From Octopus vulgaris (taxonomy: Eukaryota): a stretch of DNA of 64,000 nucleotides. Made by a program: the position numbers and the translations under genes. The notes beneath the pieces are model-generated. The model was not told where the DNA came from and searched no databases. It was given only the letters and a program-made list of their open reading frames with translations. The DNA is taken from the NCBI GenBank assembly GCA_951406725.2, contig OX597826.1, positions 5,270,001 to 5,334,000 of the forward strand, read 5' to 3'. Positions 54 through 62,117 of this stretch are shown piece by piece; within the stretch, counting starts at the first letter, position 1; every line of letters starts with the position of its first letter.

Positions 54-145
<92 letters not shown>

Positions 146-200
146 ATATCTATCTATCTACCTACCTACCTACCTACCTACTTACCTAACTATCTATCTA
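53..200. repeat. (TATC)n/(TACC)n microsatellite, left flank of the Tx1-like insertion
   Basis: Tetranucleotide repeat read directly; it resumes at ~1478-1640 after the LINE. Confidence 0.95.
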
Positions 201-1091
201 GGGCTGGGCATGCCGTGGTTGATGATGCGCAGACACGCGCTGAGACTGCGACATCTCTGGCTCTATGTAGACGACGGTGAACAGGTGTGGTCGCCGTTTG
301 TGAGGCACGCTTTCCGCAGCTCGTCTCCATGACCGAACTGCAGTCGTGGATCAAAAAGAGGCCGAAGGAGGGGCGAATGGCACCGCGAGTGTCGCGTTGC
401 TCTCAAGCAACTCTGCCGTCCTGGGTCGACCTTGAGTGACTTCAACACAACCAAAGCATTCTATAGGGGTTTAGTGGAGGGGAGGTACGACGACGAGCTC
501 GGGGCGAACCTGGACGTCGACGAGGAGTACCTGACCCGCCTGTTCAGGACGACTTTCGGGCCAGGGCCTATGGACAACTTCCATAGATCCCTGGCCTGGC
601 AGTGCTACCGAGAAGCGCTACCCGTTCGGGATAAGCTCTACAGACACGGCTCGAGAAACACGGGGCCGACCTGCCCGAGATGCGGTCAGAGCGACGAAAC
701 CGTTCTGCACGCACTCGTGCAGTGTCCAACAATTTCCGACCTGTGGGCTTATGTCGAACAACTGCTGTCACGTGTGGGACGAGTCGGTTTATCAGCTGAG
801 TCTATCGTCAATATTGTCACGCCTCCCTCCTTCAAACGGGAAGGAAGAGCTATTTTCATCATCCCTGTGTCTATGGCGAAAGAATGTATCTGGTGGACGC
901 GTCTGAAAGGATTGGAGACAAACACTTTCCTCTCTGGTCAATCTCTCATCAACTTCTTCAAGTACCACTTGAAAAGGAAAGTGAGAGTAGAGAGGCAAGT
1001 TTTGTCTAGCGAATGTTTTAAAAAAAGATGGGTGAATGTAGCAAGAATGGCACGTATGAATGACGAAGCCACCTTGAGCATGATCCTATGA
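201..1091 (+). pseudogene. Tx1-like ORF2 C-terminal fragment with zf-RVT
   Basis: Open frame 432-1091; upstream coding continues to 201 across two compensating 1-nt frameshifts near 313 and 372. Confidence 0.8.
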
Positions 1092-1475
1092 ACCTAGAAA
1101 TTGAAAACAGAGAGTTGCTTATTCGCAAAAAAAAAAAAAAAGAAATATAACATGTGACTCCATTGACCGAGGTTACCGTGGTCTTTTCCGTAGGCTTTTC
1201 TTTCCACGGGTAAACCTCACCTGTCCTCCCCTTTACACTTCATATTGACATTTCTGTGATAACGATCCCTATTGATCAATTTAAAAAAATTTTTTTTTTC
1301 CTCTCCCCCCTTTTTTTTTAACCCCCCTTTTTTTTGTCCTCTTTCTCTCCTTTCACGATCCCTTTTGATCGAAACTCCCCTTCCTTTTTTTTTTTTTTAA
1401 ACCTTCAAAAGAAAAGCTCTACCTTGTAATTTGTTCTATCTGTGTGCAGCCCTGTGTGGCTAATAAAGAAACATA
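201..1475 (+). mobile_element. 5'-truncated Tx1/L1-clade non-LTR retrotransposon (ORF2 C-terminus + 3' UTR)
   Basis: From 201 it reads GLGMPWLMMRRHALRLRHLW (post-RT GGLG motif). ORF 432-1091 has a zf-RVT-type CCHC finger (LAWQCYREALPVRDKL...CPRC..DETVLHALVQC). T-rich 3' UTR, AATAAA at 1462-1467, (TATC)n on both sides. Confidence 0.88.
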
Positions 1476-1477
1476 TG

Positions 1478-1535
<58 letters not shown>

Positions 1536-1572
1536 GCTAGCTAGATTGCTAGCTATCTATCTAGCTATATAC

Positions 1573-1639
<67 letters not shown>

Positions 1640-2424
1640 CCATCCATCTATGTCTGTCTGACGCTCTCTATATGTCTATCTAATTAACTAAATAACCAAT
1701 TAACTCCAATGTATGAAAATTTATATGGTTTCAAAGAAAGCGAACATAAGTTAGCGCAGCAGCGTAGATGTGTGCAACATTTAGAAGGAGGTCGCTGTAA
1801 CCTTCAAGTAATCCAGCAACATGGCGTAGTATTGAGTCTCGCAGTGGGAATATTTACCTATTCCTTAATGTCATTAAAAATGCATGAAATGTAACAACTC
1901 ATTTATGCCCATCCATAAAACTTAGCTGTATTAGTCAAGAGAAAAATAGATCTCAAGAAAGTAAAATCATTACTGTAAAGGTTGCTTGGGAGGAGCGGCA
2001 CATCCGCGGACTGAATAATGATATTAGATTTCGTATCACGTTGGGAATCTGGTTTCATGTCATGAATCACTGTTATCTTTCTCATCAGCTCAAATTTTGG
2101 ACACCAATCTACATAACATTCATATCATTCAAAAAGTATCGGCTTCTTCGACAGTAAATTACGGGTTTTGCAACTTAGAATTTAGAATTTCCCTTTGTAA
2201 TATTGGTAGATTTGAACCTTGATTCACGAGCAGACTGTCCACGCAGTATACACCCGAATTTAGGCTTACTACTGTGTACAAATGTATATATCATGTCATC
2301 GTTCTAAACCCTTGTCTTAAATACCACTGGAAAACAGTTTGCACCTTATCCTCAAAGAAACTGGCTATCACTTTTCATCTACTCTTGTCATATGTGATAA
2401 TGTTTTTATTTAATAAATAGTAAA

Positions 2425-3088
2425 AGTGTGGTGGGCTGGTAGAATCGTTACCATGTCGGGTAAAATTTTTAGCGGTATTTCTTTCGTTCTGATTTCAAAT
2501 TCCAGCACGGTCCACTTTGTCTCCCATCCTTTCAGGTTCAATAAAATAAGTACTATTTGAACACTGGTGTCTATATAATTGACCTGTCACCTCCACCGAA
2601 CTTGCTGACCATGTGCCAAAATTTGAAACCAGTATAATATATAACAGTAAGGAGGTGAGCTGGCAGAGTCGTTATGGCGCCGAGCTAAATGCTTAGCGAC
2701 ATTGCATCTGTGTGTACGTTCTGAGTTCAAAATTCCGCCGAGGTCCACTTTCCGTTTCTTTCTTTCGTTGTCGATAAAATAAGTACAAATTGACAAGTGG
2801 GGTTTGTGCATTGGACTTATTCCGTTCACCAAACTTGCTGGGCTTTTTGCCAAAATTTGAAACCAAGATAACAAATAGTAGTAAGGCGGCGGGCTGGCAG
2901 ATTCATTCCCACCCTGAGCAGAATGTTTATCTGCATTCCGTCTGGGTTCAAAATTCTGCCAAGAACGACATTGCCTTTAATCCTTTCGGTGTCGAAAGCA
3001 TAATTACTAATTGAATACTGGGGTCGCAGTAATCATCCTGCTCCCTCCTTTGAACTTGATGGCCTTGTGCCAAAAAACGAAGCAAATA
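2425..3088 (+). mobile_element. Three tandem full-length copies of tRNA-derived SINE family A, older short tail
   Basis: Each copy has the head ggcggcgagctggcagaatcgttag, B box gagttcaaattcc, core gcctttcatcctttcggggtcgataaa and tail ttgctggccttgtgccaaaatttgaaacc; units start near 2425, 2648 and 2882. Confidence 0.85.
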
Positions 3089-3095
3089 TAATAGA

Positions 3096-3480: not shown

Positions 3481-4292
3481 TAGTAAATAATCGTCAGTGT
3501 GTTTAGTCATTAGGTAATATATTAATGCATTATGTGACATATATTCGATTTTACGAAAACATTATCACTTATGCCGGGTCACTCCTGCCGTATGAATTGC
3601 CTTGTTAACGCATATCAGCGTTATGATATTCAATCCTCCGTCTGTCGTCAATATACACTCGGAAGAACGTGAAAATCTATAACTTTGCGAATGTCATGTA
3701 AAACCAATACGAAGAGAGAGTTGATTGTAAGGAAGATGAAAAATATCTAAATATACATCAGGGTTTTGATTCTCAAAGGAGCCTTTTGACTTGCGCATCA
3801 CTGTTAATGTGCTCCAAGGGAATTAATTGGCCATCCAGTATTAGATACATCTAATTAAGAAAATTAAGCGACTAACTAGACTTCTAAAATACATCACGTA
3901 TTAAAATAATTACTGAATAAGTGGATATTGCTTTCTATTTCAAGCATAAAACTATAAGTCGCAGTTTTGATTGTGTTTTTTTTTTGTCTTCCATCTAGAC
4001 AACCAAAAATGCAAAAACATTTAGAAGTGGCGGTTTTGTTCATGTGTCCATCTGTCGTCTTTTGTATATTTGGTACAGAAGACTTTGTTTAATAAGTCCT
4101 TCCTTTTCTATGATGATAGGATGTGATTTGATCGAGACTTGACTCATATTTCTGTTAGGCTACGCATCATTAGAGATGCTTCATTGTTGGATCGAATGGC
4201 GTGGCATGTTGTGGCATATATGACAATCTAAGATTCGTAAAGTGTCGTAAATACAATAAAATTTGTATCGATGGAAAGTGGTTAATTATATA

Positions 4293-4597
4293 TGTTGTTT
4301 GTTCCTTCTCGAGCCATGACTGGTTCATAAGGGCCGGATTCCCGGTTTCCTTGGCGTGTAAGTTCCCCACCTGGACAGGACGCCGGTCCGTCGCAGGTGA
4401 GCAGCAAGATGCAGGAGGAAAGAGTGAAAGTAAGTTGTGGCGAAAGGGTCAGCAGAAGTTCGCCATTACCTTCTACTAGATCCGCATGGTGCTAAGGTGT
4501 TTCGCTCATAAATACATACATCGCCTTGTCTGAGACTCGAACCCGTGATCTCTCGACCGCGAGGCTGCTGCTCTAACCACTAGGCCATGTGCCTCCA
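4293..4597 (-). mobile_element. tRNA-derived SINE family B (V-domain-like core, AAC-rich tail)
   Basis: A box tggcctagtgg, B box ggttcgagtc, motif cctgcgacggaccggcgtcctgtccagg; further copies at 6931-7244 and 15371-15668. Confidence 0.85.
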
Positions 4598-5406
4598 CGA
4601 AAAAATGTGGCTAACCGGCTACCTTCCTCCGATAGAGTCTGGTAAGGTTTGTTTATCGTTTGTTTATTTTTCCACTAATTGCTTCGTCCCTTACTTTTCT
4701 CGTTCAGATAATTACTTGGTAATTTGATATACATCTTAGATATATTCATATAAAACACTATTTCCATATCCGTAAGTGCTTTTTTTTACCGTCAATTCAT
4801 TAGTAAGACCCCTTAGACTATTCATTCCTTAAATATTTTAATTTTTGTTTTTACTTCTCTTGTAATTTATTGATAATTTTACCGTTTCAAAGATTAGCTG
4901 ACCAATTAAGTTGTAGGATTAACTTTGGCCTCAAACAACTATCCATAGGGGTCTCGGGATTAAGTTTCTGTAAATATGTAACAAGTAATAACACCGCACT
5001 TAGGTTTTACCTAATTTTCTTTTCATTGATACATCTACGTATTGAATTTCTCCAAACAGATTCAATGTAAGTTAATCCTGCAAATTCCTTTTATGATGCT
5101 CTATTAAATAGCAGTTAGCCTCTAACTTCTGACCCTGTGACATGAACCCTACCATTAAATTCACTCCACAACGTCTTACCCTCGCTATCCCCACCCCACT
5201 GTATAATTGAAATGCTATGTAACTCTCAAAGGCTGCGGAAATTTCTCTTGGAAGTAACTTTCTTTACCATAAGATGTAATACCATGGATTATAATAAAAT
5301 CTTGAAATGATATTCTCGCCATTCCTTACTATTTTTATTACGTTATTTTAATTTTACTTTATTATTTTAACTTACATTCCAACATGTTAGTTTCCTATAA
5401 TTCGGT

Positions 5407-6930: not shown

Positions 6931-7241
6931 TGAAACCGGGAAACCTGCCTTTATGAGCCTGGCATGGCTCGAGAACATCTTTTCGTTGAGGCACGGGTTC
7001 GAATCTCCGACCGGGCGATGTGTGTGTTTATGAGCAAAACACCTAAGCTCCACGCAGCTCCTGTAGAAGGGAATGCCGAACTTCTGCTGACGCTTTCGCC
7101 ACAACTTTCTCTCACTCTTCCTGCATCTAGCAGCGCACCTGCGATGAACCCGCGTCCCATCCAGGTGGGGAGCCTATACGCCAATGAAACCGGGAAACCG
7201 GCCCATTATGAGCCAGTCATGGCTTGAGAAGGAACAAACAG

Positions 7242-7244
<3 letters not shown>
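6931..7244 (+). mobile_element. SINE family B: 3' tail fragment followed by a 5'-truncated copy
   Basis: Matches 4293-4597 and 15371-15668; tail gaaaccgggaaacc..atgagcc..catggct present twice. Confidence 0.85.
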
Positions 7245-7278
<34 letters not shown>

Positions 7279-8869: not shown

Positions 8870-9075
8870 TGAACGCGACAAGATGGTAGAATCGTTAGGG
8901 CAAAATGTTTAACGACATTGTGTTCGTCTTTACGTTCTGAATTCAAATTCCGCCGAGGTCGACTTTGCCTTTCATCCTTTCTTGGTCGATGAAATAAGTA
9001 ACAGTTGAGCGCTGGTAATCGACTTAATCCTACTACCGAAATTGCTGGCCTTGTGCCAAAATTTGAATCGAATAT
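8870..9075 (+). mobile_element. SINE family A, older tail
   Basis: ttcaaattccgccgaggtcgactttgcctttcatcc core plus ttgtgccaaaatttgaa tail. Confidence 0.85.
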
Positions 9076-10369: not shown

Positions 10370-11342
10370 AATATTCTTTACTAATCTAAGCACAAAGCCC
10401 GAAATTTTGGGGGAGAGGGCCATTCGATTAGATGGACTCCAGTACGTAACTGGTACTTTATTTATCGACCCTGAATGGATGAAAGGCGACGTCATCCGCT
10501 GCGGAATTTGAACTCAGAACGTAGTGGCAAACGAAATACCTATTTCTTTATTACCCAGAAGAGGCTAAACATAGAGGGGACAAACAAGGACAGACATAGG
10601 TATTAAGTCGACTATATCGACCCCAGTGCGTAACTGGTACTTAATTTATCGACCCCGAAAGCATGAAAGGCAAATTCAACCTCGGCGAAATTTGAACTCA
10701 CACCGTTACGACAGACGAAATATCGCTAAGCATTTCGCCCGGCGTGCTAACGTTTCTTATTTCTTTATTGCCCACAAGGGGCTAAACATAGAGGGGACAA
10801 ACAAGAACAGACAAAAGGATTAAGTCGAATACATCGACATCAGTGCGTAACTGGTATTTAATTTATCGACTACGAAAGGCTGAAAGTCGACCTCGGCGGA
10901 ATTTGAACTCAGAACGTAGCGACAGACGAAATACCTATTTCAGTACTACCCACAAGGGGCTAAACACAGAGAGGACAAACAAATGGATTAAGTCGATTAT
11001 ATCGACCCCAGTGCATAAATGGTACTTATTTAATCGACTCCGAAACGATGAAAGGCAGAGTCGACCTCGGCGGAATTTGAACTCAGAACGTAAAGACAGA
11101 CGAAATACCTATTTCTTTACTACCCACAAGGGGCTAAACACAGAGGAGACAAACAAGGACAGACAGACGGGTTAAGTCGATTATATCGACAACCGTGCGT
11201 AACTGGTACTTAATTTATCGACCTCGAAAAGATGAAAGGCAAAGTCGACCTCGGCAGAATTTGAACTCAGAACGTAGCAGCAGACGAAATACCTCTAAGC
11301 ATTTCGCCCAGCGTGTTAACGTTTCTGTCAGTTCACCGCCTT
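10370..11342 (-). mobile_element. Nested array of five SINE family A units (four with Tx1-like tail, last with older tail)
   Basis: Junctions at 11107|11108, 10933|10934 and 10538|10539 (aaatagg|tatttcg) and at 10755|10756 (aaataag|aaacgttag). Confidence 0.92.
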
Positions 11343-21995: not shown

Positions 21996-22203
21996 TTGTG
22001 TGTGTTTGTGTGTCTGTGTTTTTCACCTCAACATCGCTTGACAGCCGATTCTGGTGCGTTTACGTCCCCGTAATTTAGCGGTTCGGCAAAAGAGAACCGA
22101 TATAATAAGTACTAGGCTTACAAAGAATAAGTCCTGGGCTCGATTTGTTCGACTAAAGGCAGTGCTCTAGCATGTTCGCAGTCAAATGACTGAAACAAGT
22201 AAA
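21995..22203 (+). mobile_element. SINE family D, 3' half
   Basis: Matches 51420-51625 (gtccccgtaacttagcggttcggcaaaa...cagtcaaatgactgaaacaagt). Confidence 0.8.
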
Positions 22204-22218
22204 TACACACATAAACAT

Positions 22219-22292
<74 letters not shown>

Positions 22293-22329: not shown

Positions 22330-23231
22330 TTGCTCAGTGCCTAAAACATCGTGCAAAATATATAAGTAGCGATCGTGATACACACACCACGAAGAAATGA
22401 TCAAGCTCAATAACGATCTGCTAAGCAACAACTATCCCAAAAGTATGCTATCCACTTCAATTATGAAGAAGAGAGAGGATGAGGTTCATAAACTGTCCAC
22501 AGTCTGTCTACCCTATGGGAAAGGCCTCTACGAAAAGATACAAAAGATATGTGGCCCATATGACATCAGGATAGTATTCAAGAGTAATACAACCCTTCGC
22601 AAATATCTCCTTCGAGTAAAAGCACCAATAGAAGGGAATATGACCAAAGACTGCGTGCACTCCATCCCATGCAGTTGTGGTAGGTTATACAAAGGTGAAA
22701 CATGCCGCCCCCTCAAAATAAGGGTAGACGAACATCGCATAGCTGTAACGCGAGGAGATATTGATAAATCGGGAATAGCTGATCATGTATGAAAAACATG
22801 GAGACTACCCCCCACCCCCGTGGGATGAAGTTAAAATAATAGACGGAGGACACCAGTGGAAAACACGGAAACTAAAAGAAGCAGCAACGACCTCCTAAGC
22901 AGACAGAGTGCAGATATGAGCAGCAAATGGGAACCTATTTCTTTATTACCCACAAGGGGTTAAACATAGAGGGGACAAATAACATGGACAGACATAGGTA
23001 TTAAGTCGATTATATCGACCCCAGTGCTTAACTGGTACTTAATTTATCGACCCCGAAAGGATGAAAAGGGGTCGATGAAAAGGGGTCAGATATGAGCAGC
23101 AAATGGGAACCGGTATTAAAGAAGTATAGGGGAATATTATATTTATAAGCTTTAAAATTCACTCCATAACAGTGGTTAAGAGCGCGGGCTACTAAGCCCA
23201 AAATTCGTGTTCGATTCCAAGCATTGACCTG

Positions 23232-26936: not shown

Positions 26937-27367
26937 GGCGGCGAGCGAGCTGGCAGAGTCGTTAGCACGCCGGACGAAATGCTTAGCGGTATTTCGTCTG
27001 CCGTTACGTTCTGAATTCAAGTTCCGTCGAGGTCGACTTTGCTTTTTCATCCTTCAGGGTCGATAAATTAAGTACCAGTTACGCACTGGGGTCGATATAA
27101 TCGACTTAATCCGTTTGTCTGTCCTTGTTTGTTCTCTGTGTTTAGCCCCTTGTGGGTAGTAAAGAAATAGAAATTAGTATATCGTCTGTCTTTAAATTCT
27201 GAGTTCAAATTCCGCCGAGATCGACTTTGCCTTTCATTCTTTCGGGCTTGATAAATTAAGTAACAGTTACTCACTACGCACTGGGGTCGATGTAATCGAC
27301 TTAATCCCTTTGTCTGTCCTTGTTTGTGTCCTCTATGTTTAGCCCCTTGTGGGCAATAAAGAAATAG
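26937..27367 (+). mobile_element. Dimer of SINE family A with Tx1-like tails
   Basis: Two units joined at ~27170-27178; gttttgaaatag repeated on both flanks (probable TSD). Confidence 0.88.
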
Positions 27368-28684
27368 AAATGTTTTGAAATAGCTGAGTATTTGGGCATT
27401 GTATAATCTTATCCTCAATAATTGCTAGATTTACTTGTGTCTTGAATACTTTCATCTAAGTATAAGTCAAATACAAATTCTGTTTAATTAAAAACATTCT
27501 ACTGCGTAATTTCTGCTTTTTCTTTTGACAATAAAAAATATTCGCTTAGCGATTCCAATTAAATAGAGATCTCTGTAATTTTGCAAAAAGAGAGTTAGCT
27601 TTCGAGAAGAAAACTTCTACCATAATTTTAAAACAAATTGTTGATGTTGACAGTAAATATATATGTGTAACAAAATATCCTGTATTTGTAATAAATTTGA
27701 ATTCTGTGTTAAAAAAAAAAATATTTGTATTTTTTGTTTACGTGTGTAAATGATAATTATTGTTTCCAGTAGCCGTTCTTATGTGAAATTTCTGCCTGTT
27801 TCGTACGTTTCGAATATTTATTTATCTACTTCGTATACTTTTTCGATCTGTAATTTGATAATACATCTTAATTAAACCTGAAACTCGAGACAGCAGGCAT
27901 TTATTTCTATTTCTTGTTTTTTGTTATCTATTTATACCAATTCACCACCGACGTATGGCATGAGCCATAAAAAGGTCAATCTGATAACAGGACAAATGTC
28001 GACACCTGGTCATTGATTGGCTGAAAAGGAAAACAAAAAAAAATAATAAGATGAAGTATATATCAAAATCTGTTTTTTTTCTCATCCAAGCCAGTGAAAA
28101 AAAATTACTACAACAATAAACGATACAAGCAGAAGTGGAATAAGAACAATAACAACATTTAAAATAACATCAATACAAACAATATTAACAAAAGATGAAC
28201 AGCAACAAAAAAAAAATAATTGATTTCTTAATTTTAGCACATGACCATATTTAGCTGATCGGTGTCGTCGATATATTTGACCTCAGTGTTTGGCTGGTAT
28301 TTAAGTTAACCTAAAATAGATGAAAAGCGAAGTCGACCACTACAGTATTCCAAATTACAATATTACTAAATCCCGTAACACTTTTTGTTATGTATATATT
28401 TCTAATTTGCAATCAATTTTTCAATCTAAAAGAATTAATTTAAAAAGAAAATATATATATAAACAACCATGACACCACGATGTAGAGATTATGAAGATAA
28501 TTATAATGCCGATGATGATTATGATGATGATGTATAAAAATAACCACAGTGATCGTGATGATGGTGGGGGTCAAATGCTGTTTACCCACTTCAAGTACGA
28601 GCAGGGAAACTATGGTAAAAGCCCTTCCTACAGCAACCTGTCCGTCTTTCGAATATCATGCCGGGAAATTTTATATAATGTATT

Positions 28685-28860
28685 CAGGCGGCAAGCTAGT
28701 AGAATCGTATGCACGCCGGGAAAATGCTTAGTGGCATTTCGTCCATCCTTACGTTCCGAGTTCGAATTCCGCCAAGGCGGATTTTGCATTGGGGTCGATG
28801 AAATCGATGCTAGCCAACCCCCAAATTGCTGATCTTGTGCCAAAATCTGAAACCAATATT
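28685..28860 (+). mobile_element. SINE family A, older tail, degenerate
   Basis: Head, B box and ttgtgccaaaatctgaaacc tail. Confidence 0.75.
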
Positions 28861-32817: not shown

Positions 32818-33008
32818 TAAGGCGGCGTGATTGCAGAATTGTGATCTCGCCGGGCGAGATGCTTAGCGGCTTTTCGTCCGTCCTAGGTCGACTTTACCTT
32901 TTCATTTTCTCGGGGTCGATAAATTAAGTACCAGTTGCGTACTGGTGTCGATCACATCCACTAAACCTCTCACCCAAAATTTCGGCCCTTGTGCCTAGTT
33001 TAGAAAAG

Positions 33009-33010
<2 letters not shown>
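32818..33010 (+). mobile_element. SINE family A, older tail, embedded in (TTA)n
   Basis: Head, core and cccaaaatttcggcccttgtgcctag tail; (TTA)n on both sides. Confidence 0.8.
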
Positions 33011-33539
<529 letters not shown>

Positions 33540-33747
33540 TATAGTTTTATTTTTATAGCGTGCTTTCACTTCACTACCGAGCGCAGCTCTGTGTGCCTTG
33601 GGTATGTGCTGTGATTTGTTGTGATGCTCTGATGGTTATTTTACGGAAAGTGTTCTGCGTAGGATGTGTGCAGTGCCTAGTAGTGCAATCTTCTGTATGT
33701 TATAAGTGTTTGTAAGTCCTGGTGTTTTTGTTATGTATTTGTCTGAA

Positions 33748-33752
<5 letters not shown>
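33540..33752 (-). mobile_element. R4/Dong-clade LINE 3' end inserted in (TAA)n
   Basis: Minus frame KYSDKYITKTPGLTNTYNIQKIALLGTAHILRRTLSVK*, short 3' UTR, (TAA)n on both sides. Confidence 0.85.
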
Positions 33753-33835
<83 letters not shown>

Positions 33836-33837
<2 letters not shown>

Positions 33838-34180
33838 GCACATGTTTATACCATTTGTCAGTTTTTATGTTGTAGTGTTGGCATATTGTCCAGTAGATAT
33901 AACTACTCACTCGGTCGTGCCTGCGTATATATTCAGATTTGACAAGGACCGGACAGCCAGAGATGATGTGGTCAACTGTCTCATTCCACTCGTTGCACAT
34001 TCTGCACTTGCTGTTTGGGTCTATTTTCATTATTTTACTTCTATAGTCGTTCGTAGTCAGGTATTGGTCTTTGGCCACGAGAGAATCAGTCCCTCCGTTT
34101 CAACTCTTAGTCTAGAGCTGTTGATCCATTGTTGGCTTTCACTTACGATTAGTTCTTCCCTGTCAGGCCTTGCAAGGTAT
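33836..34180 (-). mobile_element. R4/Dong-clade LINE fragment (CCHC finger, RHD motif)
   Basis: DQYLTT..KCRMCNEWNETVDHIISGCPVL..EYIRRHDRV..YIYW. Confidence 0.88.
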
Positions 34181-35569: not shown

Positions 35570-36172
35570 AAATATTGTTTTCTCCTTTAGGCACAAGGCC
35601 GAAATATTTAGAGTGGGGTGCAGTCGATTAGATCGACACCAGTACGCAAGTGTTACTTAATTTATCGACCCCGAAAGGATGAAACTAAAGTCGACCTCGG
35701 CGGAACTTAAACATTAAAGACAAAAAAAAACTGTAAGCATTTTGGCCTGCGTCTAACGTTTCTTATTTCATTATTGCCCACAAGGGGCTAAACATGGATG
35801 GGACACGCAAGGACAGACAAACGGATTAAGTCGATGACATCGACACCAGTGTGAAACAGGTACTTAATTTATCGACCCCGGGAGGATGAAAGGCAAAGTC
35901 GACCTCGGCGGTATTTGAACTCAGAACGTAAAGACAGACGAAATACCTATTTCTTTACTACCCACAAGGGGCTAAACACAAAGAGGACAAACAAAGACAG
36001 ACAAACGGATTAAGTCGATTATATCGACCCCAGTGCGTATCTCCTACTTATTAATCGGCCGCGAAAGGATGAAAGGCACCTCGTCGTAAGTTGAACTCAG
36101 AACGTAACGGCAGACGAAATACCGCTAAGCATTTCGCCCGCCGTGCTCAAGTTTCTGCTTGATCACCGCTTT
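35570..36172 (-). mobile_element. Nested array of three SINE family A units
   Basis: Junctions 35945|35946 (aaatagg|tatttcg) and 35761|35762 (aaataag|aaacgttag); last unit has the older tail. Confidence 0.9.
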
Positions 36173-40490: not shown

Positions 40491-40544
40491 TATATATATA
40501 CATTGTTATAACAACAACAACAGCATCAATAATAATAATATTCT

Positions 40545-40715
40545 TGCATGATAATTGACATAGCATGCCCCAGTAACAACAGAATCAATGTGGAAGAAGA
40601 AGAAAAGTTAAGCAACTATGGCGTTTTGAAGTAGGAAGCACGAAGGTTTTTGTTAATGAGGAGAGTAAACGTGATAGTAATAGTAATTGGTACATATGGA
40701 AGTATCAACACTCAA
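40545..40715 (+). mobile_element. R4/Dong-clade LINE endonuclease C-terminal relic
   Basis: IACPSNNRINVEEEEKLSNYGVLK*EARR..VNVIVIVIGTYG. Confidence 0.65.
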
Positions 40716-41039
40716 CTACCATCAAACAACACACAATGCAAAAACAAATACAACAGAAAACTCAAACCAACCCCCATAACAGCACATACTCATACAATTT
40801 AAATATCCCACCCCAACAAAATGATGCATTACAAAGGTGCAACAAATGATGCAGTAGAAAGCTGCTTGAAACTATAGTGTTGATGATGTTGGTAATGAAT
40901 GTTACCTTACCTCAGTTTATGAGAGACAGAAGTTTCCGAAGAAACTCTTGTTGTAACAGCAAAGATGAAGCTGGACATTTAAGGGAAAGCCTATCGCTAT
41001 GTAAATTGACCACAGCTGTGATCCTAATACAGCATCAGA

Positions 41040-42685
41040 AGATAATAGAGTAAGTGGGAGTGAGTGGTCCAGAGAAGAAAACAGGATAGTGATGCAGTGC
41101 TTCTTAGAAAATGAACCTAAAAGAAGGAGCTATAGGAAACGGATGTTAAAATTTTGGTTAGAGAAGGGGATGTTTAAAGTGACTGAACAGAGATTAGTTG
41201 ATCAAGCTGACGCTATTAGGAGGAGAAAGTGGATGAGAGAACTGGAAGTAGAAGGGATCATAAGAGAACTGGAAAAGAAAGACAAACAACATAAGAGATA
41301 CAGCTCAAACCAAAGAAGAATCTAAAGGAAAACATAATAATAGCTCTACCAATAATGAACGGAGCAACGACTTGAATGATTTAAGTGAGGAAGATCAGAA
41401 GATTTTAGATGAGTTGCAGAAAGTAATGAGTATAGAAGCAAGGAAAAGATTGACAGCATTAAAATGCACAAACAGAAGGAAGCTGCTAGAAATGACGAGA
41501 GAAGTAGATTCTGTTATCGGTAGGATAGATACAAAAAATATAGGAGACACTGACTTATTTATATATGTAGGAGGGGTAGTAGTCACTAGATGATTAGGTA
41601 TCTCATAGGGAAAGATTAAAAAAGAGCAAATGTGGAAAAGGAGACTAGAAAATAAAGTGAAGACTTTCAGACAAAATCTGAGTAGAAATGAAATCTGGAA
41701 ACTGAACAAATTAGAAAATACAAGATGCAAATCTTCCCCTCAGAAAAGATACTTAGTCAAAGAGAAAGGATTTGGGTCAGTAATAGAAGAGCGTGTGATA
41801 GCAGTAGCAGGTAAGCGGTCCAGATATCAGAAAAAAATATATCAGTATAGATTATTTGAGACATACCAGAGATTTTATAACCAAATAAATAGTGGAGAGC
41901 GAAGAACTGAAGATGTGAAGCCTATTGCAGAAGAAACTAGAAAGGTTTGGAATAACATTTGGGATAACCAGTCAATCATAATGGAGATGTAGTATGGTTA
42001 AAGTAAGGGAAGATGTAGTGAATGAGAAGCAGCCAGATCTAAGACTAGTGCTTTAATGAGTATTGTGTTGGGAAAAATGCCGAATTGGAGGGTCCGGTAC
42101 CATATTTAGTTCATGGGTACTGGTTAAAGAAATTTAGTAGTTTATATTAGAGGCCAAAGGAACAACTCCAGGATTGCCTTAATGGATGCATAGAGGGAGG
42201 AAAATACACCTTATGAAAGACACGACAAGGCTAATACAGCTAGCAACTATGGTCCAGTCGCTTGCTTACCATTAGTGTGGAGGCTGTAACATTAACAGGA
42301 ATGCTTTCAGAAAGTATTTACGAGCACCTTGACAACCAGAATTTACTGCCAGAAGAGCAGATAAGGTTGTAGGAAGACGGTTAGAGGAACGCATGATCTA
42401 TTATGCATAGACAAAGCTGTTCTAAACAAAGTAAAAACTAGAATGAAAAATCAACACTAGCGTGGGTGGATTATAAGACAGCCTATGACATGATCCCACA
42501 CTCATGGATAAGTGGATGTTTAAGTATATTCAGTATAGCAGACAAAATAAGAAAATTAATTAGCTTTAGCATGGAAATATGGAAAGGTGACACACTCTTA
42601 GGGAAAGTTAATATCAAGAAAGGAATTTTCCAAGGGGATTCGTTATCCCCTTTAATATTTATCTTATGTTTTATCCCACCCACGC
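41040..42685 (+). mobile_element. R4/Dong-clade LINE, N-terminus to mid-RT, many stops and frameshifts
   Basis: WSREENRIVMQCFL..YRKRMLKFW..TEQRLVDQ; WKRRLENK; WVDYKTAYDMIPHSWI; KKGIFQGDSLSPLIFILC. Confidence 0.9.
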
Positions 42686-43009
42686 CTAGTTTAGTGAGAT
42701 AATGACTCACTCCACTTTTCTCTCCTTCTACTTACATTTTTTCCTACTTTTTTCCTGTTTACCCGGTTGTCGCTTCCCAGCAAAAACCAAGGAAGACAAT
42801 TTGCAGCAGAACTTATTAAAAAGCAGGAAAATAGCTTGAATATATATTGTTGTTGGTAAACAGAAAAAACAACAACAATTGGACGTTTTTGGTTGCCCAG
42901 TTTAGCCAAGAAAGTATTCGTTTGCTGACAAGAAAGAGTTAGGACTTTCATACATTGGAAATTTCGCTATCAATAGCGACTACTAAGAAAAAAAAAAATG
43001 TAATGCAAT

Positions 43010-43290
43010 GTATCAACCAAAAAGTTCTCAGAGCGTGACAAAGCAAGCATGCTGTAGTATATACCAAATTACACTGACAGGAAGATCGAGGCTAATCGAC
43101 CGGATATTGTTGTCAATGACAACCAGGAAAGGATATGCCATCTAATCGAAATGCCATTTCCCAACAGGCGTTAATGTACTTCCAACTGAAATGTCGAAAT
43201 TTACCAAATATGAAAGTATGAAAATAGATGAAGCTAAAACGTGAGTAGTAAAAACATAAACAATAATAATTGGCATTGGGAAGATTAAAT
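43010..43290 (+). mobile_element. R4/Dong-clade restriction-like endonuclease relic
   Basis: YTDRKIEANRPDIVVNDNQERICHLIEMP (PD...D/E motif). Confidence 0.75.
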
Positions 43291-43555
43291 AAATAAATAA
43301 ATAAACTAAAATGTTACTAACATATAATATTAGGAATAGAGCTCTTCTTGGGGTTGCAATCAGAGCAGTTAGATGACTCAATACAGTAGAAAATAAACGA
43401 AAACCTAACAGTTCATATAACCCAGACACAAAGGAAAACACTCAACGGTGCATTGAAAGCAAGCAATAAACAGAAGAACCGGCAAATAAGAATAACAGAA
43501 TTTGCGGGAGTATGCATGTATATTCGCATGTATGTATATATGTATATATATATAG

Positions 43556-46067: not shown

Positions 46068-46110
46068 TGTGTGTGTCTGTGTGTGTCTATAATAAAATAA
46101 ACGCGCCCTT

Positions 46111-46352
46111 TTAAAGCCTAGCCAGGCTCATGGGCCCGGTTTCCAGGTTACTATGGCGTATGTGTTCCCCAGCTGGACGGGACGCCTGTCCATCACAGCG
46201 TTACTTATTTTTGCCAGCTGAGTGAACTGGAGCAACGCGAAATGAAGTGTTTTGCTCAAGAACACAACGCGTCACCTGGTCCAGGAATCGAAACCACAAT
46301 CTTACGATCATGGTGCTGTGCTGACACCCTAACCACTACGCCACGCGCCTCC
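46111..46352 (-). mobile_element. Chimeric SINE: family C-like head and core with family B-like V-domain and tail
   Basis: ccagttcactcagctgg followed by gatggacaggcgtcccgtccagctgggg and ggaaaccgggcccatgagcc. Confidence 0.75.
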
Positions 46353-46840: not shown

Positions 46841-46879
46841 GAAAGAGAGAGAATAGGGTCTTTCAGGTACACACATTCG

Positions 46880-47102
46880 AGCTGGCAGAAACGTTAGCAC
46901 GCCGGGCGAAATGCGTAGCCGTATTTTGTCTGTCGTTACGTTCTGAGTTCAAATTCCGCCGAGGTCGACTTTGTCTTTCATCCTTTCGGGGTCGATTAAA
47001 TAAGTACCACTTACGCACTGGGGTCGACGTAATCGACTTAATCCCTGCGTCTGTCCTTGTTTGTCCCCTCTGTGTTTAGCCCCTTGTCGGTAGTAAAGAA
47101 AT
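46880..47102 (+). mobile_element. Solo SINE family A (Tx1-like tail) with 15-bp TSD
   Basis: aggtacacacattcg at 46865-46879 and 47103-47117. Confidence 0.92.
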
Positions 47103-48625
47103 AGGTACACACATTCGCACACATATGTATATATATGCTCATCTTTAAACTAACCGTATTTTCAATTTCCATCTAAAAAAAACACACAAAATAACAGCAC
47201 ATCTATACAAACAGCTTTATTTTTGACAAATATGTAATTGACATTGTTTCACATCAAGTCAATAAGCCAACCTAAGCAGTTTTTTTTTTGTGGTGCTGGC
47301 ACGGTTCATGTCCATTAATTTAGCAGATATACTATCGAAAGGGTTCTTTCCTTGAAAATCTCTCCTATTTCCATATCAGGGACGATATTGTCCAAACTAT
47401 GGTGGAGCGTGACTTGAAGGAAATTTTAGTCAGAAGATCTATTTCATTCAGTCCATTACTATTTATTTATTTTGTAAGCAAAATTGTATATGTTAATCGC
47501 CTGTGGTTTAGCGTCGAATAACCAGAATCATAAGTTCATGAAATAAGATACTTGACGTTATTTTTCTGATCCATTGCGCTCTGAGTTCGAATCCTACAGA
47601 GATCAACTTTGCCTATCATGTCTCAGACGTCAATGAAAAAGACTGCCAAGTAACGGAGTGGATATAATCAACCAATTCTCTCTTTACCTAAAGAACAGTC
47701 TTATTTCTAAATTATATAAAAATATATGTCGTTGTTGGTTTTGTTGTTTCTCCTTTCAATCGTGACTGAATAAGTATTCTAGCCACATCTAGATGTCAAC
47801 TGCATTCCATTGGAAACCTACATCATTTAATGTATCTCGACTTTGCCTGCTGTTTCTAGCAGATCGAGCGACCACATGGTAGCTCTCAGTCCTCACCGTC
47901 TGTGAATGCAGGAACATTATTTATAGTGATATGACTGGTTAAAGTAACCGTTTAATTTACTTGATTTTACTCCAGTACTTACTGTTGCAGAATCCACTGC
48001 ACACAAATATGTAGCCAGCAAATTCACTGATCACTTCACACACATTGACACTGTTGATACGACCATGATATATTGCGTGTACAATATTACTGAATGTGAC
48101 AGAAACTGACAAGAAAATCTTCTGGAACTGTCTGCAGAAACATTTGGAAAGAAACAAGCCGAAGTACACAGCAAACCGTATAAATTAATACGAAGCATTC
48201 GTGTCGATCTGGATAGTGGCTATATGTGATTTAATGCATACGTATTCAGTTGTTAAATGTAGCGCTGTTTTACTTTCTGTTGCCAAAAAGAGTTTATAAA
48301 TAATAAATATGCCATTTGTTATCATGCTTTGGAACAAATTTAGGTAGGTTTCTCCTGCCCAAGTAAATGCACATCTGCATCCTCAAGCGATTTTAGTATT
48401 GTCTTTTCGTAGCGTAAATTTGTATTCCCATAGTACAACATTAGCTTTTATTATTTGGTATTATTTGTGCTTTATAAGCTGCTTGAATTGAGGTTTTAGT
48501 GTCAAAATGCGAATGCCTGTCATTGTTTTAATGTATCGCGGCTTGTTCTATTCTATGTTCAGTCTGTATTATCTCTATGGGTTGTTCAATTTCACCCATT
48601 TACATCTCATTATTGCTTCTCATAT

Positions 48626-49220
48626 AAGGCGGAGACCTGGCGGAAACGTTAGTACGGTGGGCGAAATGCTTAGCTGTATTTCGTCTGCCGTTACATTCTG
48701 AGTTCAAATTCCGCCGAGGTCGACTTTGCCTTTCATCCTTTCGAGGTCGACTAAATAAGTACCAGTTACGCACTGGGGTCGACATAACCCGTTTGTCCTC
48801 TCTGTATTTAGCCCCTTGTGAGTAGTAAAGAAATAGGTATTTCGTCTGTCTTTATGTTCTAAGTTCAAATTCCGCCGAGGTCGACTTTGCCTTTCATCCT
48901 TTTGGGGTCGATAAATTAAGTACCAGTTGCATACTGGGGGGGTCGATTTAATCGACTGGCCCCCTCACCCCCAAAATTTCTGTTCTTGTGCTTAGATTAT
49001 TCTTATAAAACGACGAGCTGGCAGAAACGTTAGCACGCTGGGCACAATGCTTAGTGGCATTTCGTCAGCTTACGTTCTGAGTTCAAATTCCGCCGAGGTC
49101 TACCTTGCCTTCCAACCTTTGGGGGTCAATAAAATAACTGCCAGTTTAGTACTGGGGTCGATGTGATCGACTGCCCCCTGCTCACAAATTCCATACTTTG
49201 AACCTATAGCAGAAAAGATT
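48626..49220 (+). mobile_element. SINE family A cluster: nested dimer plus adjacent older copy
   Basis: Junction 48837|48838 aaatagg|tatttcg; separate full copy from ~49008. Confidence 0.9.
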
Positions 49221-51332: not shown

Positions 51333-51625
51333 GTGAGTGGATTTGCTAGACGGAAACTGAAATAAACCCGTCGTATATATATGTATATATATATATGTGT
51401 GTGTGTGTTTGTGTGTGTATGTGTGTGTGTGTTTGTGTGTCTGTGTTTTTATCCCCAACATCGCTTGACAACAAATAGTGGTGTGTTTACATCCCCGTTA
51501 CATAGCGGTACGACAAAAAAGTTACCGATAAAATAGGTACAAAGAATAAGTCCTGGCGTCGATTTGTTCGACTAAAGGCAGTGCTCCAGCATGGCTGCAG
51601 TCGAATGACTGAAACAAATAAAATA
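51333..51625 (+). mobile_element. SINE family D, 5'-truncated
   Basis: Reverse-complement match to 51640-51920. Confidence 0.85.
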
Positions 51626-51639
51626 ATATATATATATAC

Positions 51640-52035
51640 TCTTACTCTTTACTCTTTTACTTGTTTCAGTCATTTGACTGCGGCCATGCTGGAGCACCGC
51701 CTTTAGTCGAGCAAATCGACCCCGGGACTTATTCTTTGTAATCCCAGTACTTATTCTATCAGTCTCTTTGCCGAACCGCTAAGTGACGGGGACGTAAACA
51801 CACAAGCATCGGTTGTCAAGTAATGCTAGGGGGACAAACACAGACACACAAACACACACACATATATATACATATATACGACAGGCTTCTTTCAGTTTCC
51901 GCCTGCCAAATCCACTCACAAGGCATTGGTCGGCCCGGGGCTATAGCAGAAGACACTTGCCCAAGATGCCACGCAGTGGGTTTGAACCCGGAACCATGTG
52001 GTTGGTTAGCAAGCTACTTACCACACAGCCACTCA
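51640..52035 (-). mobile_element. SINE family D, full length, internal microsatellite, (AAGAGTA)n-like tail
   Basis: Head gagtggctgtgtggtaag, B box gggttcaaaccc; 5'-half copies at 55587-55745 and 56437-56598; degenerate 3' half at 57990-58180. Confidence 0.88.
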
Positions 52036-57947: not shown

Positions 57948-58239
57948 TATATGTACACATATATGTATGTATATATATATATGTGTGTATGTCTTTGTGT
58001 TTGTACCACCATCACCCTTGACAACCCTTGTCGGTGTGTTTACGCTCCCGTAACTGAGCCGCAAAAATCAGTACTGGGCGTCAAAAATTACGCCCTGGGA
58101 TCGATTTGTTCGATTAAAACTCTTCAAGGGAGGGCTCCAGCGTGCCTGCACTCAAATGATTGAAATAAGTAAAACAATAAGAGAATTTATACATACTTTT
58201 ATATATATAATATAAATACCCAGTTGTGTATGCATGTGT

Positions 58240-59147: not shown

Positions 59148-59378
59148 ATTTCTTTACTATCCACAAGGGGCTAAACACAGAGGGGACGAACAAGGACAGA
59201 CAAACGGATTAAGTCGATCATATCGACCCCAGTGCGTAACTGGTACTTATTTAATCGACCCCGAAAGGATGAAAGGCAAAGTCGACCTCGGCGGAACTTG
59301 AACTCAGAACGTAGCGCCAGACGAAATACTACTAAGCATTTCGCCCGGCGTGGTAACGTTTCTGCCAGGTCGCCGCTT
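59148..59378 (-). mobile_element. Solo full-length SINE family A (Tx1-like tail)
   Basis: Complete head-core-tail; possible short TSD tgagat. Confidence 0.9.
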
Positions 59379-62117
59379 TGAGATACCGTCTCACACTTGG
59401 ACGTCAATCCGTCAAATGGTTATCAATTTACAGCTGAGTGATAAAATGCAACCCACCACAACCATTTGCATGTTCGGTTATCGGCGACTAAACCGGTAAT
59501 CCCGCGAAGATTGATTGATGAGGAGGAAAATGTATTTGGACATCCTGCGAGACGGAAGGTAAAACTTGTCAAAGGGTGGAGAAACTCAACAGAGTCAACA
59601 GCTCAATAATGTGTAAGGGCACGTGGTCTAATGGCGAAGGTAGTCAACGTGTTGTACTCATAATAGCAAGATCGAGGTTTCGATTTCTTGACCAGCTCTA
59701 CGTTGTATTCTTGAAGAAAAACATTTCCGTGTGTTTTCGACCAACTGAATGGCCTATTTGAAGAGGTGTAGCTAATGACGTTTCCGAGGTCAGCAGTTAC
59801 GGACATAAAAGCTGTTTTGAAATTTGATTCTGGTTTAAAACCTGCGGGCTAAACAAATATTAAAATCTGAAATATTTCTGCTCTTGTTGGTTACAACAAG
59901 TTTTGGTCAGTAATCAGGCACTGCTGTATATCAGAGGTTACTGTAAGAGATCTTCACTTATTCTGAGGAATATCTTTGTAATTATACTGAAAAATTTAAA
60001 TATGTGTTAAATAAGAGTAAAAATGTATTATTCAAATATACAAATACTACAATGTAAAAATATTTTGCTGATACACGTATGAACTGTGACTCAAAGCGAA
60101 TAACTACATTATCTAATGATCTCTTCTTTTCTGTCCAGAGCAGCATTTAAAATTCGTTTAAAGTTCTTAAGTTTCATTTAAAGAAGACAGTCGTGTGTTG
60201 AAGGTGAAAAATGACCGGTGTGTGGTGTAACTCACAAATATACAAGTATGTTAAAATTTAAGTAAGTATTCGTCATTAATGTTCGAAATAAAGAAAGCAG
60301 AATTACTTGGATTCTGGGCTACCTAACATCCCACCACAAAAAAAAAATAAAATAAAACGATAGAATGTAAATTATAAAGGCAGTATCTATTACATGCCGC
60401 CTGGTAAGCAACTGGAATCCAAGATGAGCGAGATAGATGTAAGGATGAAAGAGAAAAGTGAGCAAGAGGGATTCAAATCAAAAATATTCCAAGAATTTTC
60501 AGAAGCAAGCGAAGGACAAAAGAAAAAGAAATCTCTCTTCGAAGACCAAGTAAGAATTATCGGGAAATATAAACAAGAAACGAAACAATTTGTTAATTGA
60601 CTGGGCCATACCGCATTTAACTTACTAATACCAGCAAAAGCAAGTACATTCCTGAGGATAAGTAGGCATTATTATGCATACGTATCTTAGATTTACTGTT
60701 CGTATTTTCCATACCTCTTATTTTTCGACATCGCTGTATTTGTTTCTACTCTATCGCTTTCATCCTTCCTTCCTTCCTTCCTTCCTTCCTTCTTTCCTTC
60801 TTTCCTTCCTTCCTTCCAGTTATAATATTCCGTCTTCTATGGCCGAGGTGTTTATTTTCCACAACGGCTAACATTTCGTATATTACCAATACTTTTCATG
60901 TATTTTTCATTCCAAGATTTTTCACAATAAATGTGGAGATAAACTGCATGGGGAAATCACTCATTTTTACCATTTAAAAGCTATGCACATCAACGGAAAC
61001 GGAAATGGTTTATGTTTTCAATATATCAATCTGTAATGGTGGGAATGAATTATGGAATGACTATTGTCACTGCAACCCGAAACTATTAGTAACCACGGTG
61101 GAGAATCTTTGCTTTCTATAACGTCCTATATTACATACACGCATACCTGTATATTACAAACACATACACATATGTGTGTGTATGAATATATGTATATACG
61201 TATGTAAGTATATGTATATACGCATAACTATGTTCATATATATTTCAACATATATTCACACATAATCACACACTCGGATAGATATATTTATATGCATAAA
61301 ATATGTATATTGATACGCGTGCATAAACAGATGCACATACATGCACTGACATACGTGTATGTATATATATTTATGCATATGCATATGTATATATGTACAC
61401 ATACTCAGGCGCACAGATACAAACACACATATACACATGTACCTATATATGCATATATACAAACTAAACCCTTCGATTTCACCATCAATATTTCCCTACA
61501 CACATCTATAAAATTTGCTTAAACAATTCCTATTATTGAGAAAATAGCCCTAGAGTTACGGACTCGAAAAAGAGATTGATACGTATATATGATGAACAAA
61601 ATACAATAAACAGCGCACAGCATATTAGAGCACACAGAAATAAAAAAAATAAATAAAAGTATTTGATCAATATTAAGGCTGACCGATTTGAGGTAGTTTT
61701 TACGTTATCTTATCTTCCCGATATCTCATTTCGATTTAGACTCTCTATATTCATGAGTATTTGTGATACTAAAAACAAAATTTTAAAAATATTATATATA
61801 AAAATTATATCTAAAAAAATATAGTACTATATGTATATAATTGAACAAATATGGATTCATATAAGTACGCGTATAGTCAGATATGTATATGCACATACGT
61901 ATATAGACGCTCACGAAAGTAATTACATATCTGTATTATGGGAGCAAAAATGAAGAGGAGAGAGAGAAAGAGAGACAGAGAGGAGAGGAGAGTCAGTGAG
62001 GGAAAGTGAGAGAGAATGAAGGAAAGAAAGGGAAAAAGAGGGGGATAGAGAAATAGTGAATAAGAAAGAAAGAAATCCATGCAGTCACACACACACATAC
62101 ACACACATGTATGTATG

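Follow-up and report, generated by a model that had tools for sequence, protein, structure and literature searches.

Short interspersed elements (SINEs) commonly borrow the 3′ end of the long interspersed element (LINE) that mobilizes them, and LINEs of the Tx1 clade are often target-specific. L1-superfamily LINEs are the textbook exception to this tail sharing, and the only link between Tx1 and a SINE that we found in print, that of SINEU, rests on targets. We analyzed a stretch of 64,000 nucleotides of AT-rich, microsatellite-rich animal DNA from Octopus vulgaris (contig OX597826.1, positions 5,270,001 to 5,334,000; referred to as the window here), for which a preliminary description had proposed that a SINE acquired its 3′ tail, and with it sequence-specific insertion, from a Tx1-family LINE. 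We find that the SINE and a Tx1-like LINE at the start of the window form a genuine SINE/LINE pair with a common tail, of a type that is seldom met. With a probability of roughly 0.55, the SINE tail came from an L1-type (likely Tx1-clade) LINE lineage, and the SINE is moved in trans by a sister family of the window's LINE that prefers GGT(A/T), including that in the SINE's own head.

The closest described case is SINEU of crocodilians, which was linked to Tx1-Mar by a common target, with no LINE of the same 3′ end in the available part of that report (Kojima 2015, PMC4494074), where target preference was called when more than 20% of the flanks were of one type. As far as that part goes, the octopus SINE resembles SINEU/Tx1-Mar in being ascribed to Tx1-clade machinery, in its site preference within another repeat, and in tandem insertions around a target site duplication (TSD). 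Unlike SINEU, which ends in poly(A), it has a LINE-shared tail, a tRNA-like head, and itself as the preferred host, and no LINE with the same target was found. SINEs with L1-clade tails account for 3 of the 58 SINE/LINE pairs in the portion available of Ohshima 2013 (PMC3747384), all of them plant or algal: ZmSINE2 and ZmSINE3 with LINE1-1_ZM (maize/sorghum) and SINEX-3_CR with L1-1_CR (Chlamydomonas). The octopus pair is like these in its short common 3′ end with a predicted stem-loop, theirs having a conserved loop and a variable stem, and this likeness suggests that an L1-superfamily protein recognizes the 3′ end stringently; unlike them, it is found in an animal, has no poly(A), and shows a site preference. 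The searched literature yielded no animal SINE/LINE pair with an L1-clade tail and no report of a Tx1-tailed SINE from octopus; Repbase Reports and Dfam lie outside that literature, and the pair may already be on record there.

Two further comparisons concern the surroundings of the elements, again within the available parts of the sources. Like Kibi, Koshi, and the crocodilian microsatellite-targeting Tx1 elements, the window's LINE is an apurinic/apyrimidinic endonuclease (APE)-type LINE in a pyrimidine-rich microsatellite, although its repeat unit is TATC instead of TC, TTC, TTCC, or TTTC (PMC4494074). Like the tandem SINE arrays of Scapharca broughtonii, which were ascribed to unequal recombination, the octopus arrays have a full head on the first unit and head-truncated units behind it; unlike them, their units are no more alike within an array than between arrays, their tails are complete, and solo copies have the same junction motif (PMC11481361). 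A repeat annotation of O. vulgaris lists 80 L1-Tx1 families, 13 of them recently active, and attributes 11.6% of the genome to SINEs; the words “partner” and “nested” are absent from its main text as available (PMC13282606).

A 3′ tail common to a SINE and an L1-superfamily LINE

The LINE and the sequences next to it are as follows.

201..1473, + strand: 5′-truncated L1-superfamily (Tx1-like) LINE (zf-RVT, E=1.4e-8; tblastn, 63% identity to the relative P0003 over 201-1088)
1092-1473, + strand: LINE 3′ untranslated region (UTR), ∼380 nt
1431..1473, + strand: LINE 3′ tail in common with SINE tail A (match scans; family-wide end by contig depth)
1448..1461, + strand: predicted LINE tail hairpin, AGCC-CTGTGT-GGCT
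56..200, + strand: (TATC)n/(CTAC)n microsatellite on the 5′ side of the LINE
1478..1640, + strand: (TATC)n microsatellite on the 3′ side of the LINE

The SINE is a dispersed, noncoding element of ∼230 bp with TSDs of 6 to 25 bp. Its head and body occur with three different tails (A, B, and C), and 12 copies in the 64 kb carry tail A. By eye, against the box consensus, the head contains an A-box-like TGGCAGAAACG and a B-box-like GAGTTCAAATTCC, while neither ARAGORN nor Rfam returned a tRNA match for it. In 1994, Ohshima and Okada reportedly described tRNA-derived octopus SINEs, OK, OR1, and OR2, and the family studied here may be one of them. Copies outside the tail-A arrays, together with the tail-B units, are listed below.

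46880..47103, + strand: solo tail-A SINE; 15-bp TSD starting AGGT (46865-46879 and 47103-47117)
22936..23086, − strand: solo tail-A SINE, 5′ truncated; 25-bp TSD starting GGTT (23111-23087 and 22935-22911)
59148..59378, − strand: solo tail-A SINE; 6-bp TSD within GGTATCTCA
10385-10543, 32828-33010, 35585-35764, 48833-49000, and 49013-49210: tail-B copies with the same SINE head/body
2430-3090, 8881-9075, 28267-28355, and 28691-28860: tail-C copies with the same SINE head/body

Repeats of (TTA)n flank the tail-B copy at 32828 on either side, and 2430-3090 holds three tail-C copies head to tail.

The ungapped match between LINE 1431-1470 and SINE 47061-47100 (30/40) was reproduced as originally given, and it extends to the whole tail-A family. 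When both strands of the window were scanned without gaps with the last 41 nt of the LINE, all 12 tail-A copies matched at 29 to 32 of 41 positions, the next-best site reaching 25/41. Neither 5,000 dinucleotide shuffles of the complete 3′ UTR nor 20,000 shuffles of either tail reached the local score of 34 even once, so that the similarity is significant by the shuffle check that had been proposed for it. With the A-rich end removed, the ungapped 22/31 was again reached by 0/20,000 shuffles, and the gapped local score of 19 was reached by 279/20,000, which is marginal. In a blastn search of the window with the SINE, the LINE tail matched with E=0.003, the remaining matches lying within copies of the SINE head/body. 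Taken by itself, homology of the LINE and SINE tails is highly probable.

This match is confined to tail A. All 12 tail-A copies scored against the LINE at a level reached by 0/1,000 shuffles; among the tail-B and tail-C copies, 10 of 11 were equaled by more than 100/1,000 shuffles and one by 28. The LINE at 201..1473 is thus ruled out as the source of tails B and C. Nor did a non-Tx1 LINE match better, as far as the one other LINE end compared (33541-33660) goes: its local scores were 11 to 19, versus 25 to 41 for tail A with the Tx1-like end, and it was rejected as the source of any tail.

Both matched tails stand at the terminus of their element, and for the LINE this holds family-wide. At least half of the LINE's sampled words were present in 18 of the 24 public sequencing runs listed. 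We aligned contigs of four runs, from four organisms, to positions 950-1492 at 80% likeness (22,809, 23,348, 5,937, and 5,008 contigs), leaving out runs X19 and X20, which had a small share; summed contig depth in this alignment is not a copy count, and the 5′ flanks of other LINE copies lie outside its view. Contig depth peaked over the tail bin in all four runs, and the tail is therefore the regular 3′ end of the LINE family. That it is a one-off piece at this locus is ruled out, given that it ends a high-copy LINE family in four organisms. Among the variants listed, beyond which there are 25 further ones, three bring the LINE closer to the SINE: 1435 T>C (44 to 58% of summed depth), 1437 T>C (40 to 45%), and 1461 T>C (18 to 27%). 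Moreover, loose ends before 1439 revealed LINE-type upstream sequence followed by TTTTGTCCCC, as in the SINE, in 46, 50, 31, and 24 contigs. These contigs are unlikely to be SINE derived, since runs X5 and X9 list no C>G places and SINE tails would give C>G at 1460. By hand count, the LINE variant ending in TTTTGTCCCC agrees with a typical SINE tail at 35/41 positions.

Judged by its sequence, the LINE is a member of the L1 superfamily. It retains the C-terminal part of ORF2 from the GLGMP motif on, with a frameshift near 330-373 and a stop at 1091; its endonuclease and reverse transcriptase (RT) lie outside the window, and the domain evidence for them comes from relatives. P0003 contains RT and zf-RVT domains, and the full-length relative P0008 (43% identity to P0003) contains Exo_endo_phos, RVT_1, and zf-RVT and has human L1 ORF2p as its best solved structure (E=9e-69; R2, only 5e-16). 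Since these relatives combine endonuclease, RT, and zf-RVT and are far nearer to human L1 ORF2p than to R2, we placed the LINE in the L1 superfamily. The Tx1-clade label is likely, in view of the microsatellite association. Of the claim that the SINE acquired a Tx1-family tail, what stands is thus a tail significantly in common with an L1-superfamily (Tx1-like) LINE lineage, with the Tx1 clade itself left as likely. Among the named relatives of the LINE protein are one from Argonauta hians, at 57% identity, and a short piece of a gene model from Octopus bimaculoides, at 80%, which indicates octopod DNA. In metagenome, viral, and prokaryote-genome contigs, scans for LINE relatives with alignment A2 confirmed no loci, and the tail patterns had no matches. 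Two relatives of the LINE ORF2, P0004 and P0126, are filed at NCBI under a bacterial metagenome-assembled genome, probably representing animal DNA in that assembly.

Both tails can form a small stem-loop, as had been noted (AGCC/GGCT in the LINE versus GCCC/GGGY in the SINE), yet the correspondence is looser than first described. Each can form a 4-bp stem, but the loop has 6 nt in the LINE and 5 nt in the SINE, the ungapped alignment puts the stems one base off, and in the copy originally quoted (47061) the closing pair is broken (CGGT). With a 1-nt gap in the loop, one LINE/SINE stem pair swaps from G-C to C-G, by eye. Similarly, the CCTTGT said to precede both tails does so, but an intervening AAT in the LINE shifts the register by 3 nt. 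Across the SINE tails themselves, A, B, and C can each form a 4-bp stem that encloses CTTGT as the loop, while the stem sequences are swapped (GCCC/GGGY, GGGC/GCCT, and TGGC/GCCA). In an alignment of 21 copies, 18 of them distinct (alignment A4: 23 picked sites minus 2816 and 49242), 87.5% of the stem cells pair, a value reached by 0/500 shuffles and compared with at most 47% in slid controls. Coming from only three related lineages and from sites picked by loop match and pairing, this pairing is no more than suggestive.

Insertion sites and SINE arrays

Eight of the 12 tail-A tails adjoin a SINE head in the same orientation, which begins with GGTATTTCG in five cases, with AGAAACG in two, and with a degenerate head piece in one; the remaining four run into unique DNA. 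Four arrays are present in the window.

10385..11340, − strand: array 1; one full head, four tail-A units, last unit with tail B; junctions tail/GGTATTTCG (three) and tail/AGAAACG (one)
35585..36170, − strand: array 2; two tail-A units, last unit with tail B; junctions GGTATTTCG and AGAAACG
48628..49000, + strand: array 3; one tail-A unit ahead of a tail-B unit; junction GGTATTTCG
26940..27371, + strand: array 4; a dimer of tail-A units, enclosed as a whole by a 12-bp TSD

GGT directly follows 7 of the 12 tail-A tails. At the four unique sites the TSDs measure 15 bp (AGGT...), 25 bp (GGTT...), 6 bp (within GGTATCTCA), and 12 bp (without GGT), so that two of four start with (A)GGT; at the GGT frequency of the window, the probability of two or more is 4.4e-4, for a motif that was itself taken from the array junctions. 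Of the sequence-specific insertion that had been proposed for the SINE, a site preference is borne out at both junctions and TSDs; it is real, albeit in a small sample. As a separate observation, the 25-bp TSD at 22911-22935 (− strand) begins with nine bases, GGTTCCCAT, identical to positions 2 to 10 of the SINEU-3 TSD AGGTTCCCATCAGCAT in the part of Kojima's report available (PMC4494074), a single case that is possibly due to chance.

The tail subtype tracks the junction: the seven tails with GGT behind them all have GGGT, or a sequence one base away from it, and all three GGGC tails are followed by AAGAAAC or GAAATG (a repeat of the tail's own end), never by GGT. The main junction site, GGTATTTCG, begins directly after the loop of a 16-bp hairpin in the head of the solo copy 59148..59378 (59270-59378, − strand; z=−3.96).

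Each array has a single full head, at its front, and in three of four the last unit carries tail B. Identity averages 85.5% within arrays (8 pairs) and 86.2% between arrays (47 pairs), and recent tandem duplication is ruled out as their origin because units of one array are no more alike than units of different arrays. With three B-diagnostic columns left out, the tail-B last units differ from the tail-A majority by 13.8%, 17.6%, and 4.3%, and the tail-A units ahead of them by 6.9 to 9.3%. An older host unit fits two of the three arrays with a tail-B last unit, not the third.

The insertion signatures of the SINE, GGT(A/T) or AGAAA, differ from that of the window's LINE family, which looks (TATC)n linked. 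The window copy has TATC on both sides, depth in the junction bin (1463-1481) is 69 to 86% of that in the tail bin with no frequent change at 1477 among those listed, and the joint rows 1492 to 1439, 1492 to 1351, and 1486 to 1351 reveal more LINE 3′ pieces directly behind TATC repeats.

Proposed mechanism and competing explanations

These observations are consistent with the following course of events. The SINE would have gained its tail by a template switch from LINE RNA, and the ORF2 protein would recognize the small tail hairpin, which amounts to stringent 3′ recognition. The target would be nicked at GGT(A/T), and where it is a SINE head, the new complementary DNA (cDNA) may anneal to the homologous head of the host, so that no second head is made and head-(body-tail)n arrays grow. 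The carrier would be a sister LINE family, given that (TATC)n is the target of the family in the window. If so, a hairpin tail common to an animal Tx1-like lineage would allow the question of whether RNA recognition in this group is stringent or relaxed to be tested directly, with an element of 45 nt, and the tail pairing would explain part of how octopus SINE arrays are built.

Several results weigh against this account. The tail hairpins have unremarkable energies (the LINE tail has z=−0.52 and +0.71, and seven of the eight tails folded have z above −1.5, the eighth taking a different pairing). Five of the 12 tail-A tails have no GGT directly behind them. Two common LINE variants, 1430 T>C (22 to 34%) and 1438 A>G (8 to 31%), bring no approach to the SINE, and by hand count the closest LINE variant is still 6 mismatches away. 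No sequence named Tx1 was among the matches listed from protein searches, the cluster look-up, and the Atlas. Judged by divergence, the supposed host of array 3 (4.3%) seems to be younger than its guest (7.3%). In array 4 a single TSD, not starting with GGT, encloses the entire dimer; this is compatible with a dimer master as well as with a later insertion into the head of the first copy. The suggestion that the partner is a sister family is upheld insofar as the window's LINE family, tied to (TATC)n, does not appear to be the carrier; however, none of the 24 loose-end rows listed (1,157 more exist) lies at the terminus (1471-1475), and no insertion of the LINE family into a SINE head was seen. 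The carrier family was likewise not found in contigs aligned to the LINE 3′ part, a comparison that did not include a search for LINEs with the exact SINE tail.

Alternatively, the tail may be LINE derived while the SINE RNA itself encodes the site preference, without a special endonuclease, which we regard as unlikely. RNA polymerase III would read through into the next unit and give an RNA ending in ...GAAAUA-GGUAU (or -AGAAA) that primes only where the nicked target pairs with it, the nicks coming from the LINE family of the window or from a relative with loose specificity, with a dedicated sister family unnecessary. The scarcity of runs of four or more T, with none in the SINE copy 59148-59380 and only two in array 1, speaks for this reading, as do the bases behind the tail, which follow its subtype (GGGT with GGT; GGGC with AAGAAAC or GAAATG), and the LINE's own junction GTATCT, which resembles the SINE sites GGTATT and GGTATC. 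However, the three solo sites have GG in the 5′ copy of the TSD or in the 5′ flank; GG thus belongs to the target, which fits either model, and the RNA ends lie outside what contigs can show.

A bolder combination, doubtful as a whole, is that of a self-targeting SINE whose read-through RNA bears the Tx1-type hairpin tail and, behind it, the element's own head sequence, pairs with nicked SINE heads, and so homes into its own copies. The seamless arrays would be transcribed again from the front promoter, and one head would have had at least three hairpin tails in turn, the CUUGU loop being conserved among them. If true, stringent RNA recognition based on a tail would be on record for the first time in an animal member of the L1/Tx1 group, and SINE RNA would guide part of the targeting.

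It is improbable that the arrays arose without insertion into SINE heads, from multimeric read-through masters or from template jumps of the reverse transcriptase. In such a jump, the enzyme would leave an RNA cut or stalled at a loop in the tRNA-like head and continue at the 3′ end of a second SINE RNA. An origin of either type would account for the single TSD around the dimer 26940-27371, for the order of a GGGT tail and then a GGGC tail that recurs in three of four arrays, for the GTCTTTA common to four of five units behind a GTAGT-type tail, for the GGTATTTCG junction at the first base after the loop of the head RNA hairpin, and for the age of the last unit in array 3, which does not exceed that of the first unit. 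Yet insertions at unique sites start with GGT too, the last units are older in two of three arrays, the last tail varies among arrays, and there are two different junction sites.

Finally, a likeness that is due to chance or to convergence between T-rich and A-rich 3′ ends, or a LINE that took its end from the SINE, is very improbable: the marginal gapped score without the A-rich end and the CTTGT-loop hairpin already present in the SINE's other tails favor it, but no shuffle equaled the whole tail or the ungapped A-free part, and the match is terminal in both elements. In four organisms, moreover, the tail ends a LINE family of high copy number, some variants of which are closer to the SINE; the direction of transfer is presumed from the general rule.

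Other repeats in the window

Two decayed LINEs, which we take to be Dong/R4-like, lie at 33541-34100 (− strand) and ∼40520-43400 (+ strand); the former has a weak zf-RVT match and ends in (TAA)n. An open frame at 22379-22792 (+ strand), without a Pfam match, presumably corresponds to the C terminus of a Penelope-like element. A second tRNA-like SINE family, unrelated to tail A, is present at 4290-4600, 7181-7250, and 46100-46350. Another SINE-like family has part of its body in common with the SINE studied here (the GGGGTCGATT region) and an unrelated tail (22097-22220, 51525-51640, 51640-51764, and 58056-58180); its copies at 51525-51764 face each other.
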